A DNA stretch of 64,000 nucleotides from Deltaproteobacteria bacterium (lineage in GTDB: Bacteria; Desulfobacterota; Desulfomonilia; UBA1062), in assembly GCA_029547045.1 (NCBI GenBank), contig JAKPQL010000076.1:1442-65441 (forward strand). Direction: 5' to 3'. Every line of letters begins with the position of its first letter. Positions within the stretch are counted from its first letter, which is position 1. A program made the translations under genes and the position numbers. This document shows positions 18,523 to 36,674 of the stretch, piece after piece. The notes under the pieces are model-generated. The model worked only from the letters and a program-made list of their open reading frames with translations, had not been told where the DNA came from and ran no database searches.

Positions 18523-18764
18523 GGCTGGGCATGGCTGTATCTTTTCCACGATATTGTGCCGCTGATGTCTGCACAGGTGCTTCATTTCGTTGTTATCTAT
18601 TTACAGTGTTGTTCATGGTTACAGGTACAGTTACTGCTACCATGCCATGCTGTCTGATGCATTCTTGTGCAGCAGGCCTGTCTTGATACATAATTGTTGA
18701 CATTCTGGACCCTCATCCAGAAAGCCATTCACTGTATGGGGTGGGGATGGTATGTTTCGGTGTG

Positions 18765-24778: not shown

Positions 24779-26947
24779 TCAACTGATGAACAGCATCTCC
24801 CAGTATTTGGGCATGGGCCACAGCTCGTTGTCCACGTAGTGCTCCAGCGTGTCCACCGTTTCCCTGACCGCGAGCATGGTCCCTTTGATCTCGTCGCAGA
24901 AGAAGGCGGCCTTCTGTTCCTCTGATTCTATGGACTTGGACTTTGCGAGCCTTTCCGTGAGCTCGCCGGTGAGCTTCTGCGCCTCGCCGATGAGGGAGCT
25001 CACCGTCTTCAGCAGGTCCTTCTGGTGTTTCAGGGCCTTGGTGTCGCCGAGGACATCGACAGCAGACCTGATGGAGGAACCCAGTGCTCCCTGATACTGC
25101 ACTGCGGCCGGTATGACCTGGTTCTGCACCATGTTGGCAAGGGTCGCAGCCTCGATGTCGATCTCCTTGACGTACCGCTCCAGGCGGATATGGTAGCGCG
25201 ACTTCAGCTCCGTGGCGGTGAGCACGCCGTACTTCTCGAAGAGCTTGAGTGCCTTTTCGGCCTTCAGGTCCTTCAGTGCCTCTGCGCTGGTCTTCTTGTT
25301 GGGCAACCCCCGCCTGGCCGCCTCCTTCTCCCATTCCCGGGTGTAGTTGTCTCCCATGAACAGGATGGCCTTGTTGGCCTTCACCTCTTCCCTGATCACA
25401 TCCAGGGCGGCCTGGTTCACGTTTCCTCCCCTGGACTTGATCTTCGCCGCGATGAGGTCGATGCTCTCGGCCACGATGGTGTTGAGGACGGTGGCCGGGA
25501 AGGAGATGGACTGGGAGGATCCCACGGCCCGGAACTCGAACTTGTTGCCCGTGAAGGCGAAGGGCGAGGTCCTGTTGCGGTCGGTGCTGTCCTTGCTGAG
25601 CACAGGGAGCTTTGACACGCCGAGGTCGATGATGGCTTCGTCGGTCGCCTTGGTGATCTTCCCCTTCTCGATGTCGTCCAGGATCCGGGTGAGCTGTTCC
25701 CCCAGAAAGATCGAGATGATGGCAGGAGGTGCCTCGTTGGCCCCGAGCCGGTGGTCGTTGCCCGCTGATGCCACGGATGCCCTGAGCAGGTCCGCGTGCA
25801 GGTGTACGGCCTTGATGGTGGCCATGAGGAACACCAGGAACTGGATGTTGTCGTGGGGGGTCCTGCCCGGGTTGAGCATGTTGTTGCCTTTGTCGTCCGA
25901 GAGCGACCAGTTCAGGTGCTTGCCCGAGCCGTTGATGCCCGCAAAGGGCTTCTCGTGGAGCAGCAGCCTGAGCTTGTGCAGCGGCGCGATGCGCTTCATG
26001 GTTTCCATGACGAGCTGGTTGTGGTCGGCGGCCAGGTTGGCCTCCTCGAAGATGGGGGCTATCTCGAACTGGCTTGGCGCCACCTCGTTGTGCCTGGTCT
26101 TTGCCGGAATGCCGAGCTTGTAGAGCTCTTCCTCGACGTCGTGCATGAAGGACAGGATCCTCTCCTTGATGCTGCCGAAGTACTGGTCCTCCAGCTGCTG
26201 GCCTTTGGGCGGTGTGGCGCCGAGAAGGCTTCTGCCGGACATGACAAGGTCCTGCCTCCGGTAGTAGTAGTCCTGGTCGATGAGGAAGTACTCCTGTTCC
26301 GGTCCTAGTGTCGCAAAGACCTTCTTCGCCTCGTTGTTGCCAAGCAGGCGCAGCAGGCCCAGCGCGCTCCTGTTGATGGCCTCGATGGAACGCAGCAGCG
26401 GGGTCTTCTTGTCCAGTGCCTCGCCGGTGTACGATATGAATATGGTCGGGATGCACAATGTCGTCCCGAGGCCGCTCTTGATGATGAAGGCCGGACTGGT
26501 GGGGTCCCATGCCGTGTAGCCCCTGGCCTCGAAGGTGGACCTGAGACCGCCGCTGGGGAAGCTGGACGCATCGGGCTCGCCCTGGATGAGCTGCTTGCCG
26601 GAGAAGCGCTCGATGATGTCGCCCTCGTCGGTGAACTCGATGAACGAGTCGTGCTTTTCCGCCGTGGCACCGGTCATGGGCTGGAACCAGTGGCAGTAGT
26701 GTGTGGCGCCCTTCTCGATGGCCCATTCCTTGATGGCGTGGGCGACGGCGTTGGCGGTGTCCAGGTCAAGCTTCCGCCCTTCGTGGATGATCTCTATGAC
26801 GCGCCTGTACACATCCTTGGGGAGCCTTTCCATCATGACCTTGACGCCGAAGGTGTCTTCTCCGAAGTACCTCGACACCTGTACATCCTTCTCCTTCTCG
26901 ACGGCATAGCTCCTCTCGTATGCAGCGACTGTGTTGCCGACCTTCAT
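24779..26947 (-). CDS. glnN: glutamine synthetase type III
   Basis: GSIII-type N-terminus (YFGEDTFG..., THYCHWFQPMTG) and a length of about 722 aa from ATG 26947, which has RBS GGAGGA. The track's upstream extension to 27040 lacks an RBS. Confidence 0.9.
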   Translation of the reverse strand: MKVGNTVAAYERSYAVEKEKDVQVSRYFGEDTFGVKVMMERLPKDVYRRVIEIIHEGRKLDLDTANAVAHAIKEWAIEKGATHYCHWFQPMTGATAEKHDSFIEFTDEGDIIERFSGKQLIQGEPDASSFPSGGLRSTFEARGYTAWDPTSPAFIIKSGLGTTLCIPTIFISYTGEALDKKTPLLRSIEAINRSALGLLRLLGNNEAKKVFATLGPEQEYFLIDQDYYYRRQDLVMSGRSLLGATPPKGQQLEDQYFGSIKERILSFMHDVEEELYKLGIPAKTRHNEVAPSQFEIAPIFEEANLAADHNQLVMETMKRIAPLHKLRLLLHEKPFAGINGSGKHLNWSLSDDKGNNMLNPGRTPHDNIQFLVFLMATIKAVHLHADLLRASVASAGNDHRLGANEAPPAIISIFLGEQLTRILDDIEKGKITKATDEAIIDLGVSKLPVLSKDSTDRNRTSPFAFTGNKFEFRAVGSSQSISFPATVLNTIVAESIDLIAAKIKSRGGNVNQAALDVIREEVKANKAILFMGDNYTREWEKEAARRGLPNKKTSAEALKDLKAEKALKLFEKYGVLTATELKSRYHIRLERYVKEIDIEAATLANMVQNQVIPAAVQYQGALGSSIRSAVDVLGDTKALKHQKDLLKTVSSLIGEAQKLTGELTERLAKSKSIESEEQKAAFFCDEIKGTMLAVRETVDTLEHYVDNELWPMPKYWEMLFIS

Positions 26948-27107
26948 GCGTTCCTCCGTATGCTGGTATGGTTGTGCCCCATGGGTGCCGGATCCCACCC
27001 GTGGCTGACTCACCCGTAACCCTCTTAGGTCAGTCAGCATGTCTGTTCAATACAAAATCATGGAAACGGGTGCGGGGCATCCTTTCGTCTCCTTGTGCCC
27101 CCCTACA

Positions 27108-31271: not shown

Positions 31272-31472
31272 TCATCCACACCGTGTCAGGTCGAGGAGCA
31301 GGGATCCGGCTTGTTCGCGAACACGTACGCCCTCTGGCTTGCATACTCTGTAGAATCTGCTCAGGATCTCACGGTCCCTGGGCTTCTTTTCGTGTTCACC
31401 GGTGAAGGCTGCAGCGTATTCTGCTGGAATGTCGTCGTATGTGCCCACGATATTTTGCAGGTCCTGTTCCAT
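31272..31472 (-). pseudogene. possible remnant of a class I SAM-dependent methyltransferase (N-terminal fragment)
   Basis: MEQDLQNIVGTYDDIPAEYAAAFTGEHEKKPRDREILSRFY...LLLDLTRCG* resembles a methyltransferase N-terminus, with the stop inside motif I. A shifted frame continues ARQIIRQGERRIPASPLSPA (compare ARxLAxRGxxVxGxDLSPxM). It then runs into the antisense of the gpsA-like 3' end. Confidence 0.3.
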
Positions 31473-31552: not shown

Positions 31553-32776
31553 CTAGAACAGGAAGATCGGGTACGTGTCCGGGTTCTTGCCGAAGCACGT
31601 GACGTCGTCGATCTTCTCGATCCTGGCGCCCTTGAGCAGTGCGTAGAGCGACCGCTCCACGCCGATGCCAGCGCCCATGGTCTCGGGGAAGTAGGGTCTG
31701 CCCTGCTCGTCCTTCATGTGCACCGCGGTGAGGAACGGCCCGTAGCCGTCCAGGCTGGCGATGTTCTCCAGCATGCCGCCCTCGAAGCGCGGGGCCTCGG
31801 GGAGAATCCTGTTGTCGATGAGGCGGTAGATGATGGGCTCGTAGAGCCATTCCCGGATGGCACCGGACAGGATCTCCAGGGCAGGGGTGAATTTAGCGGT
31901 CTGACGGATGATTGACTTGGCGCAGATGTCGTAGTTGTAGATCATGTCCGAGGTGAACGACGATATGGGGATCCTCGTGCCGTCGGGCTTCACGTAGGGA
32001 TAGATGAGGTCGTAGTTCTCCCGCATGAGGCCCGTGACCCAGAAGAACTGGCCCTTGACGTCCTCACCGGCCTTGGCGTCCAGGTCCACCTTGCCGTGCT
32101 TCCTCAGGGCCTCGTCGTGCCGAACCCTCGGGAAGGGCTGCTTCGGCACCTCCAGCGCCACGCCCAGATCCCTGAGGTTGTCTTCGTTCTTCTCCACGAT
32201 GGACGCCGTGGCCGCGATGATCATACGCTCGAAGAAGTCGATGATCTTCTCGTAGTCCTCCTTCAGTACTGCCTTCACCTTTTCGGGCTCTTTCAGGTAC
32301 TGCCCGTAGTCTATGCCGCGGTTCCTCCGGAGCTCCACGTCGATCTGGGAGAAGTCGATGAGGTACTTGCCCCGCTGCTTGCGCTGGGGGCTCTCGATCT
32401 CCAGGCGGATGTTGGGCGAGTCTATGAAGATGCCCTTGATCTTGGGGTTGAAGCAGGCCAGGAACTTCATATAGATCATGGAGTGGGTCGCCACGTAGGG
32501 CATGCCCTTGTAGTGGATGGTCGGCACGTGCTCCACGTCGTGGGCCAGGGGGTCGGTCACCGGGCTCATCTCCACGCGTTCCAGGTTCAGCAGGCCTTCA
32601 TTCACGAGGAAGTTGTTGATGGCGGTCACGAAGGTGGTGCGGATGCTCATGGCATTGTATATGTCGTCGTTCACCCACTTGTTCACATAGTTGTCGCGCA
32701 CGAACTCCTCGAAGGTGGAACCGGACTGACCGATGGTGGCCTGGAAATGGAACAGGTCTTCGCCGATGAAACCCAT
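31553..32776 (-). CDS. stand-alone class IIb aminoacyl-tRNA synthetase catalytic-core paralog (AsnA/archaeal asparagine synthetase A-like)
   Basis: 407 aa from ATG 32776 (RBS GAGGAGG). Motif-2-like SPNIRLE...KYLIDFSQIDVEL, EILSGAIRE, and motif 3 GAGIGVERSL. There is no anticodon-binding domain. Confidence 0.7.
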   Translation of the reverse strand: MGFIGEDLFHFQATIGQSGSTFEEFVRDNYVNKWVNDDIYNAMSIRTTFVTAINNFLVNEGLLNLERVEMSPVTDPLAHDVEHVPTIHYKGMPYVATHSMIYMKFLACFNPKIKGIFIDSPNIRLEIESPQRKQRGKYLIDFSQIDVELRRNRGIDYGQYLKEPEKVKAVLKEDYEKIIDFFERMIIAATASIVEKNEDNLRDLGVALEVPKQPFPRVRHDEALRKHGKVDLDAKAGEDVKGQFFWVTGLMRENYDLIYPYVKPDGTRIPISSFTSDMIYNYDICAKSIIRQTAKFTPALEILSGAIREWLYEPIIYRLIDNRILPEAPRFEGGMLENIASLDGYGPFLTAVHMKDEQGRPYFPETMGAGIGVERSLYALLKGARIEKIDDVTCFGKNPDTYPIFLF

Positions 32777-32892
32777 TGTGTTACCTCCTCGCGTATTGTT
32801 GCCCGTACAGGGCATTTCCGTGAATGTCCGATTATCAGCAAACCTTATGCCACGGAGGAGCCGTTGATTGCAAGGACGGGCACGCACCCGCT

Positions 32893-34290
32893 TCAGATGC
32901 AGTACTTGTCGAAGGCGGCGGGGACCGGGGTGCGGTACTCGCCGCTGAAGCAGGCGGTGCAGTAGTCCTGCGGGTTGTCCACGGTGCTGAGCATGCCCTC
33001 GATGGTGAGGTAGCCCAGGGAATCCGCGCCCAGGTAGGCCCGTATCTCCTCGATGGATTTCTCGCTGGCGATGAGTTCAGAGTGCCTGGAGATGTCGATG
33101 CCGTAGTAGCAGGGGTGCTTGATGGGGGGCGAGCTGATGCGGACGTGCACCTCGCGGGCGCCCTTGTCGCGGAGGATCTGCACGATCTGGCGCATGGTGG
33201 TGCCCCTCACGATGGAGTCGTCCACGAGGACCACACGGCGATCGTCCAGCACGCCGGTCACGGGGTTGAGCTTCACCTTGACGTCCAGCTTTCGTTTGTC
33301 CTGGTGGGGCGCGATGAAGGTGCGGCCCACGTAGTGATTCCTGATGAGCCCGATCTCGTAGCGCAGGCCCGAGACCCGCGCATACCCCAGGGCCGCGGTG
33401 TTGCCCGAGTCGGGCACGGCGATGACGATGTCGGCTTCCGCGGGCGAATCCTCGGCGAGCCTCTTGCCGAGCCTCCTGCGGATCTTGTCCACCTTTTCCG
33501 AGAAGATGAGGCTGTCGGGCCTGGAGAAGTAGATGTGCTCGAAGATGCACAGGCTCTTCTGTGGCGCCTCGGGAAGCCTGCTCGACCTCAGGCCGCTCCT
33601 GTCGACGATGATGACTTCGCCGGGCTCCACGGACCTGACATACTCGGCGCCCATGATGTCGAAGGCGCAGGACTCGGACGCCACCAGCCAGGCATCGCCG
33701 TGTCTGCCGAGATTCAGCGGCCTGAAGCCCTGCGGGTCTCGGGCAGCGATGAGCATGTCCCTGGTGAGGAACACGAAGCAGTAGGCGCCCACGAGCTGCT
33801 TCAGGGCATCCATGACCGCTTCCGTCACGTCGGTCTTCCGGGAGCGTGCGACGAGGTGCAGCACGATCTCGCTGTCGGAGGTGGTCTGGAAGATGGACCC
33901 GGTGTCCTGCATCTCCCTCCTGAGCTGGGAGGCATTGGTGATGGTCCCGTTGTGAGCCACCGCTATGGTGCCGGTCCTGCACTCTATGACAATGGGCTGG
34001 GCATTGACCAGGGTGGAGCCTCCCCGGGTGGAGTAGCGGTTGTGGCCGATGGCCGCGTGTCCCTTGAGCCTGGGCATGACGGCAGGGTCGGCAAAGACCG
34101 ACCACACGAGCCCCATGCCCCTGTGGTGCTCCACGCAGGCGCCGTCCGTGGCGGCGATGCCGGCGCTCTCCTGCCCCCTGTGCTGGAGGGCGTAGAGCCC
34201 GAGGTATGTCTGCTCTGCGGCCCGGGGGTCGCCGTAGATGCCCACAATGCCGCATTCCTCGCGCCAATGGTCGTCAAGATGATCATCCAT
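32893..34290 (-). CDS. purF: amidophosphoribosyltransferase (with short propeptide)
   Basis: 465 aa. MDDHLDDHWREE-CGIVGIYG (nucleophile Cys after a 12-residue leader), HRGQESAGIA, and the PRTase loop VVLVDDSIVRGTT. Confidence 0.93.
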   Translation of the reverse strand: MDDHLDDHWREECGIVGIYGDPRAAEQTYLGLYALQHRGQESAGIAATDGACVEHHRGMGLVWSVFADPAVMPRLKGHAAIGHNRYSTRGGSTLVNAQPIVIECRTGTIAVAHNGTITNASQLRREMQDTGSIFQTTSDSEIVLHLVARSRKTDVTEAVMDALKQLVGAYCFVFLTRDMLIAARDPQGFRPLNLGRHGDAWLVASESCAFDIMGAEYVRSVEPGEVIIVDRSGLRSSRLPEAPQKSLCIFEHIYFSRPDSLIFSEKVDKIRRRLGKRLAEDSPAEADIVIAVPDSGNTAALGYARVSGLRYEIGLIRNHYVGRTFIAPHQDKRKLDVKVKLNPVTGVLDDRRVVLVDDSIVRGTTMRQIVQILRDKGAREVHVRISSPPIKHPCYYGIDISRHSELIASEKSIEEIRAYLGADSLGYLTIEGMLSTVDNPQDYCTACFSGEYRTPVPAAFDKYCI

Positions 34291-34451
34291 GCCCAGGTAC
34301 TGTGCAAGCCAGGGGCCAGTCCTGTTTCAGAACTGCGACCTCGTGGAGCCGCAGGGTTTCACGATGCATGGCCCATGGTACGTCCGGGTCGAGGGACATT
34401 TTCGTCCATTCATGCGCTTTTGGCTCAATATTGTTTCAACGAACACCTGCA

Positions 34452-36119
34452 CTACTTGTAGCTGTCCTTGTGCACGTCCTTAACGGCCCTGCCGGAGGGG
34501 TCGATCATCTTCGCGAACGCCTCGTCCCACTTGATGGCAGTGGGCGTGGAGCAGGCCACGGACGGCCCCTCGGGCACGCAGCGGGCCGCGCTGTCAAGGG
34601 GGAAGAACTCCTGGAAGATGGCGCGGTAGTTGTACGCCTCCTTGGTGACGGGCGTGTTGATGGGGAACCGGAACCGGGCGTTCGCCATGTGGGTGTCGCT
34701 CACCTCGCGTTCAGCCACCTCCCGCAGGGCGTCGATCCAGCCGTAGCCCACTCCGTCGGAGAACTGCTCCTTCTGGCGCCAGGCCACCTCTGCAGGCAGG
34801 TAGTCCTCAAAGGCCTTTCTCAGGATGTGTTTCTCCATCCTGCCGCCCGTGCACATCTTGTCCGCAGGGTTCAGGCGCATGGCAGTGTCCAGGAATTCCT
34901 TGTCCAGGAACGGTACGCGACCCTCCACGCCCCATGCGGCGAGCGACTTGTTGGCGCGGAGGCAGTCGTATTTGCTCAGCATGGAGAGCTTCCGCACGGT
35001 CTCCTCGTGGAACTCCCTGGCATCGGGCGCCTTGTGGAAGTAGAGGTATCCACCGAAGATCTCGTCCGCCCCCTCTCCGGAGAGCACCATTTTGACCCCC
35101 ATGGACTTGATCTTGCGCGCCATGAGGTACATGGGCGTGGAGGCGCGGATGGTGGTCACGTCATAGGTCTCGATGTGGTGGATCACGTCCCTGAGCGCGT
35201 CGAGACCCTCCTGGATGGTGAAGGTGAAGTTGTGGTGGATGGAACCGATGTGGTCCGCCACCTTCTGTGCCGCGGCCAGGTCAGGGGAGCCCTCAAGACC
35301 GATGGCGAACGAGTGCAGCTGGGGCCACCATGCGTCTTTCAGGCCGCCGGTCTCGATGCGCTTGGCCGAGAACTTCCTGGCTATGGCCGAGATGATAGAA
35401 CTGTCCAGCCCCCCCGAGAGCAGCACTCCGTAGGGCACGTCGCTCATGAGCTGGCGCTCCACCGCATCCTCCAGGGCATGCCTGAGGTCCCTGATGCAGC
35501 TCGCGTTGTCCTTCACGGCGTCGTACTCCATCCAGTCACGCACATAGTATCGCCGGGCAGCGCCCTCGGTGCTCAGGAGCAGGTGGCCGGGGGGGAACTC
35601 CTCCACATGGTTGCACACCCCCATGAGGGCCTTCATCTCGGACGCCACGTAGAAGTTGCCGTGCTCGTCGTGTCCCGTGTACAGGGGACAGATGCCTATG
35701 TGGTCGCGTCCGACGAGGTAGAGGTCCTTGTCGCTGTCGTACAGGGCAAAGGCGAAGATGCCGTTCAGGTCCTCGAGGAAATCCGGACCCTTCTGGCGGT
35801 ACAGGGCCAGGATGATCTCACAGTCGGACTCGGTGAGAAAGTGATAGGGCTCGGCAAGGCCCTTCCTGAGCTCCTGATGGTTGTAGATCTCGCCGTTGAC
35901 CGCCAGTGCGACCTTGCCGTCGCCGGTGTAGAGCGGCTGGGCCCCGGAGTTCAGCCCCACGATGGAGAGCCGCTCGTGGGCGAGGATGGCACGGTCGTGC
36001 ACATAGATGCCGCTCCAGTCGGGCCCCCTGTGGCGCTGGGTGCGGCTCATGACCAGGGCCTGGGCGCGGAGCTCCTTGATGTCCGTCTTGATGTCGAAGA
36101 TGCCGAGTATGGAGCACAT
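34452..36119 (-). CDS. asnB: asparagine synthase (glutamine-hydrolysing)
   Basis: ATG 36119 gives M-CSILGIFD (Ntn Cys2) with RBS GGGGGAG. PP-loop SGGLDSS. About 555 aa. Confidence 0.92.
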   Translation of the reverse strand: MCSILGIFDIKTDIKELRAQALVMSRTQRHRGPDWSGIYVHDRAILAHERLSIVGLNSGAQPLYTGDGKVALAVNGEIYNHQELRKGLAEPYHFLTESDCEIILALYRQKGPDFLEDLNGIFAFALYDSDKDLYLVGRDHIGICPLYTGHDEHGNFYVASEMKALMGVCNHVEEFPPGHLLLSTEGAARRYYVRDWMEYDAVKDNASCIRDLRHALEDAVERQLMSDVPYGVLLSGGLDSSIISAIARKFSAKRIETGGLKDAWWPQLHSFAIGLEGSPDLAAAQKVADHIGSIHHNFTFTIQEGLDALRDVIHHIETYDVTTIRASTPMYLMARKIKSMGVKMVLSGEGADEIFGGYLYFHKAPDAREFHEETVRKLSMLSKYDCLRANKSLAAWGVEGRVPFLDKEFLDTAMRLNPADKMCTGGRMEKHILRKAFEDYLPAEVAWRQKEQFSDGVGYGWIDALREVAEREVSDTHMANARFRFPINTPVTKEAYNYRAIFQEFFPLDSAARCVPEGPSVACSTPTAIKWDEAFAKMIDPSGRAVKDVHKDSYK

Positions 36120-36159: not shown

Positions 36160-36174
36160 GCAATTGCCCTGCCA
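36160..36174 (-). promoter_or_regulatory. sigma-54 (-24/-12) promoter of asnB-purF-(aaRS-like) operon
   Basis: The minus strand reads TGGCAGGGCAATTGC (TGGCA-N6-TTGC, correct spacing). It lies about 40 nt upstream of ATG 36119. Confidence 0.7.
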
Positions 36175-36281: not shown

Positions 36282-36596
36282 TCAATCACAGGTTGATCCT
36301 GTTGGAAGAAACAACTCGGGCACCCGGCACTGCTTCACCTCGATCTCCTGCCAGACCTTGCCGCACATGTACGGTTCATCCGCGAGGTACTGGTCGAACT
36401 CCTCCCGCGACCCGAAACTCATGATCAGGACAGACCCTCTCATCGTACCGTCCTCATCGATGAGCGCGGCCCCGTACAGCGCCTTGCCCTCGGCCTTGAG
36501 CCTGGTGATGGATGCGAGGTGCCGCTCACGGCTGGCGAGCCTGCGCTCCAGGGCCTTTTCGTCGGTGCCGTCTCGGGCGATGAGGAGAAAATGCAT
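36282..36596 (-). CDS. YciI-like (YCII domain) protein
   Basis: 104 aa from ATG 36596 (RBS GGAGGA). MHFLLIARDG...RERHLASITRLKAEGKALYGAAL...SREEFDQYLADEPY fits the YCII pattern. Confidence 0.6.
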   Translation of the reverse strand: MHFLLIARDGTDEKALERRLASRERHLASITRLKAEGKALYGAALIDEDGTMRGSVLIMSFGSREEFDQYLADEPYMCGKVWQEIEVKQCRVPELFLPTGSTCD

Positions 36597-36674
36597 GACA
36601 GTCCTCCGTGCGATTGGTTTCGTGCAACAATACCATCTGACCATTCTTATGAACAGGGCCGGAATACATCCTTC

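Follow-up and report, generated by a model that had tools for sequence, protein, structure and literature searches.

The 64,000-nucleotide (nt) stretch of contig JAKPQL010000076.1 (Deltaproteobacteria bacterium, assembly GCA_029547045.1) analysed here, called the window throughout, carries on its minus strand a gene, named X below, whose 407-amino-acid (aa) product resembles the catalytic core of an aminoacyl-tRNA synthetase (aaRS). X is a divergent member of the radiation of archaeal-type asparagine synthetase A (AsnA; the archaeal-type enzyme is abbreviated AS-AR), and we put at roughly 0.5 the probability that it encodes an ammonia-dependent aspartate-ammonia ligase of the nitrogen-limitation regulon, acting beside the glutamine-dependent asparagine synthetase AsnB. 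We observed or computed the fold of X, its catalytic and acidic-substrate residues, where it falls in the phylogeny, its predicted promoter and its gene neighbourhood, and from them we infer its substrate, the ammonia acceptor and its physiological role. An NH3-dependent partner of AsnB had been proposed in an earlier reading of this DNA from its letters (the original prediction), and in view of the residues, phylogeny and nitrogen context described below it remains the most likely function of X. The gene and its ribosome-binding site are located as follows.

31553 to 32776, minus strand: X, aaRS-like gene; stand-alone class IIb catalytic core of 407 aa, divergent member of the AS-AR radiation (translation, Pfam, NCBIfam, Protein Data Bank matches, fold matches and trees).
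32784 to 32790, minus strand: ribosome-binding site GAGGAGG of X, 7 nt before the ATG (read from the sequence).

The open reading frame (ORF) of X runs from 32776 down to 31553, and its product opens MGFIGEDLF. Mechanically the frame can be extended to a GTG and 444 aa, but all homologues, which are 407-412 aa long, start at the same Met as the 407-aa product. A Pfam scan returned tRNA-synt_2 (PF00152) as the sole domain, at 40.3 bits against a gathering cut-off of 25, and no anticodon-binding domain; motifs 1, 2 and 3 are all present, including the motif 2 and motif 3 arginines, as in class IIb cores. The motifs quoted in the original prediction lie at residues 120-149 (SPNIRLE...KYLIDFSQIDVEL), 301-309 (EILSGAIRE) and 368-377 (GAGIGVERSL), and its description of a 407-aa class II core that lacks an anticodon-binding domain stands in every part.

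Among curated family models, the best match to X was that of archaeal-type asparagine synthetase A (NF005054), at 122.2 bits. Models of aspartyl-tRNA synthetase (AspRS) and asparaginyl-tRNA synthetase (AsnRS) scored 25-26 bits against equivalog cut-offs of 353-368, those of AspRS and lysyl-tRNA synthetase (LysRS) gave 16-26 bits, and the LysRS-type signal consisted of one 45-residue fragment match (E 6e-4). At E <= 0.01 neither the EpmA/GenX models (TIGR00462, NF006828) nor the model of E. coli-type AsnA (TIGR00669) matched X. The best solved structures by sequence were Pyrococcus AsnA (1nnh/3p8t, E 7e-18 using the family profile) and Thermococcus kodakarensis AspRS (1b8a); residues 35-154, which hold motif 1, TDPL, THSMIxxK and motif 2, align to the former (1nnh, 3p8t), and the middle of the protein (residues 171-319) aligns best to the latter. 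An AlphaFold (AF2) model built from 27 family members, with a mean predicted local distance difference test score (pLDDT) of 74.7, poor at loops 64-103 and 114-142 and weak in the active-site loops, matched the folds of 3nel, 1b8a, 3reu and 3p8t (archaeal AspRS, archaeal AsnA and AsnRS) with probability 1.00. The proposed kinship with AsnA-type enzymes is thus upheld by the best model, the structure matches and the trees described next; EpmA, named alongside as a relative, is not supported, no EpmA model matching at this threshold.

Two maximum-likelihood trees (LG+C20; 43 and 54 sequences) recovered X as monophyletic with support of 100/100 and nested it within the AsnA-like radiation with support of 95/95, and the AsnRS and AspRS cores, including the genome's own, lay beyond a 98/98 branch from it. 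A grouping of X with tRNA-charging AspRS or AsnRS, on which the original prediction had been ready to fall, was seen in neither tree. In the 43-sequence tree a neighbouring AsnA-like clade came out as the sister group of X (90/92), a position left unresolved in the 54-sequence tree; its members (e.g. P0261, P0270, P0302, P0304, P0305) are uncharacterised bacterial proteins of 330-360 aa without an anticodon domain, and have in common with X an Arg/Lys-Tyr pair in motif 2. A divergently transcribed regulator lies directly upstream of the gene in five of six loci of this clade (L097-L101), and the best match of all five regulators was the AsnC equivalog (149-175 bits, the next-best Lrp-type models reaching 62-82 bits); in the sixth locus (L096) the gene follows Rrf2, PALP and hexapeptide-repeat genes instead. 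E. coli asnC is divergent to asnA and activates it, and the AsnC-linked clade mirrors this pairing although its enzyme is of the archaeal type; by this analogy the clade is argued to make asparagine. With the AsnC-linked clade on one side and the Pyrococcus enzyme on the other, X would be bracketed by asparagine synthetases. Pyrococcus AS-AR has been characterised biochemically (reviewed in PMC9437257, PMC3532385).

Across 27 X sequences, each 64-88% identical to the window protein, 140 columns are invariant, among them K104, R124 and E126 (SPNIRLE), Q144, D146, E148, E301, R308 and R375 (GIGVER, motif 3). The segments TDPL and (T)xSMIxxK are common to X and AS-AR-type proteins and unlike AspRS and AsnRS, which read QSPQLFK and SGQLYLE, respectively, at the (T)xSMIxxK position; SPNxRLE, REx-YD and E..SGxxRE are likewise found in both X and AS-AR-type proteins. 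X retains, in THSMIxxK and SGAIRE, the Lys (K104) and the E..SGxxRE Arg (R308) whose equivalents in AspRS bind the acidic group of aspartate. Archaeal AsnA and AspRS are described as anchoring aspartate with two arginines (PMC3532385). The Asp/Asn-binding residues, which the original prediction had left to be checked, proved to be kept in X as for an acidic substrate (K104, R308, R124/E126, Q144, D146/E148, R375), and an acidic amino acid together with ATP is a well supported candidate for its substrate pair.

X is 113 residues longer than the 294-aa Pyrococcus AsnA, and in a hidden Markov model alignment of the two the extra residues fall at the N-terminus (+28), at 154-213 (+29), 213-256 (+4), 256-301 (+25) and 319-366 (+22), and at the C-terminus (+5). 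The single insertion of about 100 aa that had been described is therefore replaced by additions in at least five places. With the N-terminal 35 residues forming two helices in the AF2 model, X is essentially a full-size AspRS-type catalytic domain with a helical N-terminal extension, and AS-AR is a trimmed version of that domain.

Set beside known systems, X resembles AS-AR ('AsnRS2' of Pyrococcus abyssi and P. furiosus; 3P8T, 3REU, 3RL6, 1NNH; NF005054) in being a stand-alone class IIb core without an anticodon domain, in its TDPL, SMIxxK, SPNxRLE and GxGxGxER motifs, in its best sequence and fold matches and in being nested within that radiation. It differs in length (407 versus 294 aa), in its long stem, in its score (122 bits against a cut-off of 309) and in reading RENYD for REFYD and SGAIRE for SGGERE; it is also bacterial, with predicted sigma-54/nitrogen-regulon control and linkage to glnA, gltB and purF, of which no description was found for AS-AR. 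The AsnC-linked clade lies in the same radiation and, like X, has the motif 2 pair and no anticodon domain, but its proteins are of 330-360 aa and are paired with a divergent AsnC-like regulator rather than with sigma-54 or nitrogen genes. E. coli-type AsnA converts Asp, ATP and NH3 into Asn, AMP and pyrophosphate (PPi) on a class II aaRS-like fold (PMC3532385, PMC9437257); this enzyme (TIGR00669; 11AS/12AS) has the chemistry proposed for X, is of separate evolutionary origin and can co-occur with X (in genome G145). Archaeal/eukaryal-type AspRS (T. kodakarensis 1B8A/3NEL) and AsnRS share with X the catalytic-domain fold and the Lys and Arg for the acidic side chain, whereas X has no anticodon domain of the oligonucleotide/oligosaccharide-binding (OB) fold, reads THSM for QSPQ and falls outside the aaRS clade. 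X as a bona fide AspRS or AsnRS was rejected on the grounds that neither X nor its conserved neighbours contain an OB-fold, that its scores are far below cut-off and that separate full AsnRS and AspRS genes are present. Like EpmA (GenX/PoxA) and HisZ, X would be a truncated synthetase core re-used outside translation, but it is of the Asp/Asn rather than the Lys type and shows no variation in the catalytic residues of motifs 2 and 3; the EpmA, HisZ and split-aaRS identities were rejected or down-weighted for want of model matches and of a partner gene and for the intact catalytic residues.

Around X in the window lie the following genes and predicted sigma-54 sites.

32838 to 32852, minus strand: predicted sigma-54 -24/-12 promoter of X itself, TGGCATAAGGTTTGC, 61 nt before the ATG in the 116-nt gap between purF and X (pattern match).
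32893 to 34290, minus strand: purF, amidophosphoribosyltransferase, upstream neighbour of X (TIGR01134, 530 bits, the genome's only match above cut-off).
34304 to 34318, minus strand: sigma-54-like site TGGCCCCTGGCTTGC upstream of purF, weaker and only 14 nt from the annotated ATG.
34452 to 36119, minus strand: asnB, glutamine-dependent asparagine synthetase B (NF006949, 933 bits, aligned from ORF residue 6; the true start is the Met of MCSILG).
36160 to 36174, minus strand: predicted sigma-54 promoter of asnB, TGGCAGGGCAATTGC (pattern match).
24779 to 27040: type III glutamine synthetase, further downstream of X.

Sigma-54 sites were scored against the -24/-12 consensus GG-N10-GC (TGGCAC-N5-TTGC) with a threshold of at least 9 of 10 positions, and the 300 nt upstream of X were scanned in 82 loci. 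In 34 of the 82 a site at this threshold was found, lying 38-145 nt before X, compared with 39 of 1680 random 300-nt windows (2.3%). The 34 promoter-bearing loci are those in which X adjoins purF or stands alone; where X follows glnA it has no sigma-54 promoter of its own, and glnA carries one in 14 of 19 such loci. Sites similar to the asnB promoter lie upstream of asnB in five relatives (L005, L007, L008, L013, L014), and sigma-54-type sites precede purF in relatives (L005-L045; 10 of 25 loci at or above the threshold, the others at 7-8/10); the form TGGTAT-N5-TTGCA is frequent among them, at a spacing conserved at about 140-150 nt. The weaker site before purF in the window, lying so close to the annotated ATG, would imply a nearly leaderless transcript or be the wrong site. 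Upstream of the X promoter, by 100-280 nt, the palindrome GAACAAWWWTGTTC occurs in 15 of 33 loci (L010-L052) against 53 of 2520 background windows (2%). Its sole exact copy in the window is at 18688-18697 on the minus strand, about 170 nt upstream of a weaker sigma-54-like site assigned to the glutamate synthase (GOGAT) operon, and a sequence close to it, TTGAAACAATATTGAGC, precedes the purF site; the palindrome differs from the enterobacterial NtrC box and is a candidate site for an enhancer-binding protein. The window's sigma-54 upstream regions contain no convincing NtrC-type TGCACC-N5-GGTGCA. A search for known leader RNAs (T-box, glutamine riboswitch) ahead of X, in the window and in 8 loci, found none, and around X neither a sigma-70-like promoter nor a terminator was found.

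The genomic context of X was surveyed in 84 loci, 80 from species genomes and four from look-ups. Directly upstream of X and on the same strand is purF in 29 loci, all of the window's clade, and glnA in 27 (median gap about 120 nt), type I glnA adjoining X in 33 loci altogether; type III glutamine synthetase (GS) stands directly before X in two Planctomycetota loci. The gene for the large GOGAT subunit, gltB, is directly downstream in five (L063, L069, L073, L078, L082; gaps of 12-190 nt), AmtB, PII and GlnD are encoded nearby in 13, 14 and 13 loci, respectively, and HisF and HisH recur. AsnB is encoded within 2 kb of X in about ten loci, in the three arrangements asnB-purF-X, purF-asnB-X and asnB-glnK-amtB divergent from X. 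The Holophaga locus has none of these nitrogen or purF neighbours, and the conserved neighbours across the 84 loci include no carrier, OB-fold or acceptor protein. A small conserved 'ORF' of 75-105 aa downstream of X in 11 loci was considered as a partner and rejected as the apparent reverse-frame shadow of a conserved opposite-strand gene, probably hisF.

Promoters and context together place X in a predicted sigma-54/nitrogen-assimilation regulon, so that the nitrogen setting proposed for the window extends far beyond it. The same data revise the claim that X is the third gene of an asnB-purF operon: the order asnB, purF, X is correct, but the three do not form a single functional unit, X having its own conserved predicted sigma-54 promoter, asnB being near it in about 10 of the 84 loci, purF adjoining it in one clade (29 loci) and glnA being its partner in 33 others. 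Because asnB and purF have sigma-54-like sites of their own in the window and in relatives, the three genes are better described as adjacent predicted sigma-54 units than as one operon, and elsewhere X moves with glnA and gltB.

Some further observations concern the flanks. In three loci (L048, L052, L003) amtB, glnK and an asnB-family gene are found in this order, co-oriented and tightly spaced, divergent from X or from glnA-X, and judged by this arrangement asnB itself seems to belong to the nitrogen regulon in these lineages. In the window, a short frame at 31272-31470 on the minus strand (MEQDLQNIVGTYDDIPAEYAAAF...LLLDLTRCG, ending in a stop codon) lies in the gap of 340 nt that follows the stop codon of X; with its likeness to the N-terminus of a class I S-adenosylmethionine-dependent methyltransferase, broken off in motif I, it is probably a gene remnant. 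The hcp divergent region and the predicted sigma-54 promoter of asnB flank a 120-aa ORF (36282-36644, minus strand), and a Pfam scan of the opposite-strand ORF at these positions gave no match.

A search of 5.8 billion proteins yielded 1131 relatives of X; among the matches listed, they are 407-411 aa long, 62-100% identical to X and labelled 'hypothetical', 'aspartyl/asparaginyl-tRNA synthetase' or 'amino acid--tRNA ligase-related protein'. In a word-free search of 1.84 billion representatives, X formed only about six full-length clusters at 50% identity, beyond which the matches fall straight to AsnA-like proteins of 300-350 aa and 30-39% identity. With one genome taken per species, a relative is present in 282 of 185,579 species, the hosts being Desulfomonilia, Desulfobacteraceae, Desulfatiglandaceae, Syntrophaceae-like metagenome-assembled genomes (MAGs), Holophaga foetida, Pirellulales and other Planctomycetota, and a Fibrobacteria MAG; in the window's phylum it occurs in 8 of 301 sampled genomes, including every member of the window's family. 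Seven MAGs carry two copies about 70% identical to each other (L017/L055, L019/L040, L020/L037, L024/L050, L043/L052, L046/L048, L049/L058). Judging by such flanks as can be seen, a predicted sigma-54 promoter often precedes one member of the pair, which lies after purF or divergent from asnB-glnK-amtB, and in some pairs the other member is divergent from glnA and lacks such a promoter, which suggests sub-functionalised paralogues unless the bins are mixed. Full-text searching turned up no paper and no biochemical study on the family. An asparagine synthetase derived from an aaRS is a known kind of enzyme; the enlarged bacterial branch linked to GS and GOGAT, with its predicted sigma-54 control, is unnamed in curated libraries and absent from the literature searched.

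On the most economical reading of these features, X has retained the chemistry ancestral to its radiation. It would then be a tRNA-independent, adenylate-forming amino-acid ligase derived from the AS-AR lineage, which would bind L-aspartate and Mg-ATP in its class IIb active site and form beta-aspartyl-AMP, and attack of ammonia on this adenylate would yield L-asparagine, AMP and PPi. Transcribed from sigma-54 promoters along with the genes for GS, GOGAT, AmtB, PII, GlnD and AsnB, it would offer a glutamine-independent route to asparagine beside AsnB under nitrogen limitation and, by simple accounting, would cost one ATP less per asparagine than GS plus AsnB and spare the glutamine pool. The window's genome encodes a true AsnRS (464 bits), a bacterial AspRS and three AsnB-family proteins, and because of the genuine AsnRS it needs free asparagine; a six-frame search of the whole genome, which is 92% complete, gave no match to E. 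coli-type AsnA at E <= 0.001.

A number of findings weigh against a simple ammonia-dependent asparagine synthetase. X scores below the curated equivalog cut-offs of the AS-AR models, at the value given above against 309 for NF005054 and at 70.3 bits against 368 for NF005052, and a distant family member (P0122) reaches 102 bits in the same test. The stem branch of X measures 1.6-1.9 substitutions per site, and its 113 additional residues are highly conserved although AS-AR makes asparagine without them. When the AS-AR signatures TDPL, SMIxHK, REFYD and SGGERE were checked in X, TDPL, SMI..K and the Arg of ..RE were found to be kept and the His, F and GE changed: the His of SMIxHK is a variable residue, REFYD has become RENYD (F replaced by N254), and SGGERE has become the AspRS-like SGA(I/L/V)RE. 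The motif 2 loop (EIESPxxxQRGKY) is 3-4 residues longer than in AS-AR and invariant. Redundancy is a further difficulty, since all six X-bearing genomes examined (the window's and five others) have AsnRS and AsnB-family enzymes above cut-off. The idea of X as the sole source of asparagine gained no support when genomes with X and AsnRS and without AsnB were sought and none of the six qualified; X is never demonstrably the only route to asparagine. Genome G145 (contigs C90, C116), of the same phylum, encodes X together with an E. coli-type AsnA that scores 307 bits and sits at the edge of a contig. Of the 301 genomes sampled in the phylum, 8 carry X, 12 have a match to E. coli-type AsnA (6 above cut-off) and none has AS-AR proper above cut-off, a distribution that, if anything, speaks slightly against strict equivalence of X and the other AsnA types. 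An ammonia-dependent enzyme induced when ammonia is scarce is also counter-intuitive, and we know of no Ntr (nitrogen regulation) activation of enterobacterial asnA. The long stem, the conserved additions, the altered substrate-site positions and the redundancy with AsnB argue that something in X has changed. As a separate observation, the pair in G145 may be a true co-occurrence or a product of bin contamination (stated contamination 2%).

What has changed could be read in several ways. It is possible, if on balance doubtful, that X is a neofunctionalised AsnA-derived ligase in the core ammonium-assimilation module with GS, GOGAT, AmtB and PII, serving for PPi-driven, high-affinity capture of ammonia, as an amide ligase with a new acceptor, or through physical or allosteric coupling to GS, GOGAT or amidotransferases. 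The version with a new acceptor, which we regard as rather improbable in itself, holds that X adenylates an acidic amino acid and joins aspartate, or possibly glutamate, to an amine other than ammonia, such as a further nitrogen metabolite, with the conserved additions building the acceptor site. It draws on the very points just listed, namely very strong conservation within the family (140 invariant columns) beyond a long stem (1.6-1.9), the 113 residues added in five or more conserved segments, substitutions at AS-AR-conserved positions with a longer, invariant motif 2 loop, and redundancy with AsnB in six of six genomes and with AsnA in G145. The residues for the acidic substrate and ATP are unchanged, however, all phylogenetic neighbours are AsnA-like, and no conserved neighbour offers a co-substrate or carrier, all of them being standard nitrogen-assimilation genes.

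HisZ, a paralogue of class II aaRS with the role of a regulatory subunit (PMC9437257), provides a precedent for a further, quite unlikely role. X would here be a regulatory or sensor subunit that binds aspartate or asparagine and ATP and modulates GS, GOGAT or adjacent glutamine amidotransferases, in keeping with its tight linkage across phyla to glnA, type III GS, gltB and purF (gaps down to 12-130 nt) and with a degree of conservation expected of a protein with a conserved partner. The invariance of all catalytic residues of motifs 2 and 3, and of the metal-binding and substrate-binding residues, argues for catalysis instead, HisZ having lost catalytic residues, and the change of partner with lineage (type I GS, type III GS, purF, or none in Holophaga) speaks against one fixed partner. 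Aminoacylation of a macromolecule, by a split aaRS with a separate anticodon-binding protein or by an EpmA-like protein modifier, would suit a class IIb catalytic domain that is kept at full size, exceeds AS-AR in length, is about as large as an AspRS core and has a basic, invariant motif 2 loop (the loop that contacts the tRNA acceptor end in real synthetases), but it is very improbable given that X does not cluster with AspRS or AsnRS, that no EpmA or LysRS-type signal exceeds the 45-residue fragment, that the conserved neighbours include no OB-fold or other candidate partner, that the genome already has complete AsnRS and AspRS, and that no T-box or other known leader RNA was found.

Ammonium assimilation through GS-GOGAT, AmtB, PII and NtrC/sigma-54 is among the best-studied bacterial modules, and X is an unnamed enzyme inside it, placed between glnA and gltB or under its own predicted sigma-54 promoter. 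Its hosts number in the hundreds and comprise uncultured sulfate reducers, syntrophs, Planctomycetota, Acidobacteriota and Fibrobacterota. Expression in E. coli offers an easy way to test this compact, highly conserved family. A neofunctionalised X would add to bacterial nitrogen assimilation in anaerobes a component that has so far gone unrecognised, and any function other than asparagine synthesis would make it a new case of a tRNA-synthetase core recruited to metabolism or regulation. If X is the ammonia-dependent asparagine synthetase that we favour, it would be a nitrogen entry point missed in metabolic reconstructions of these organisms, and asparagine synthesis would be part of their nitrogen-stress response.

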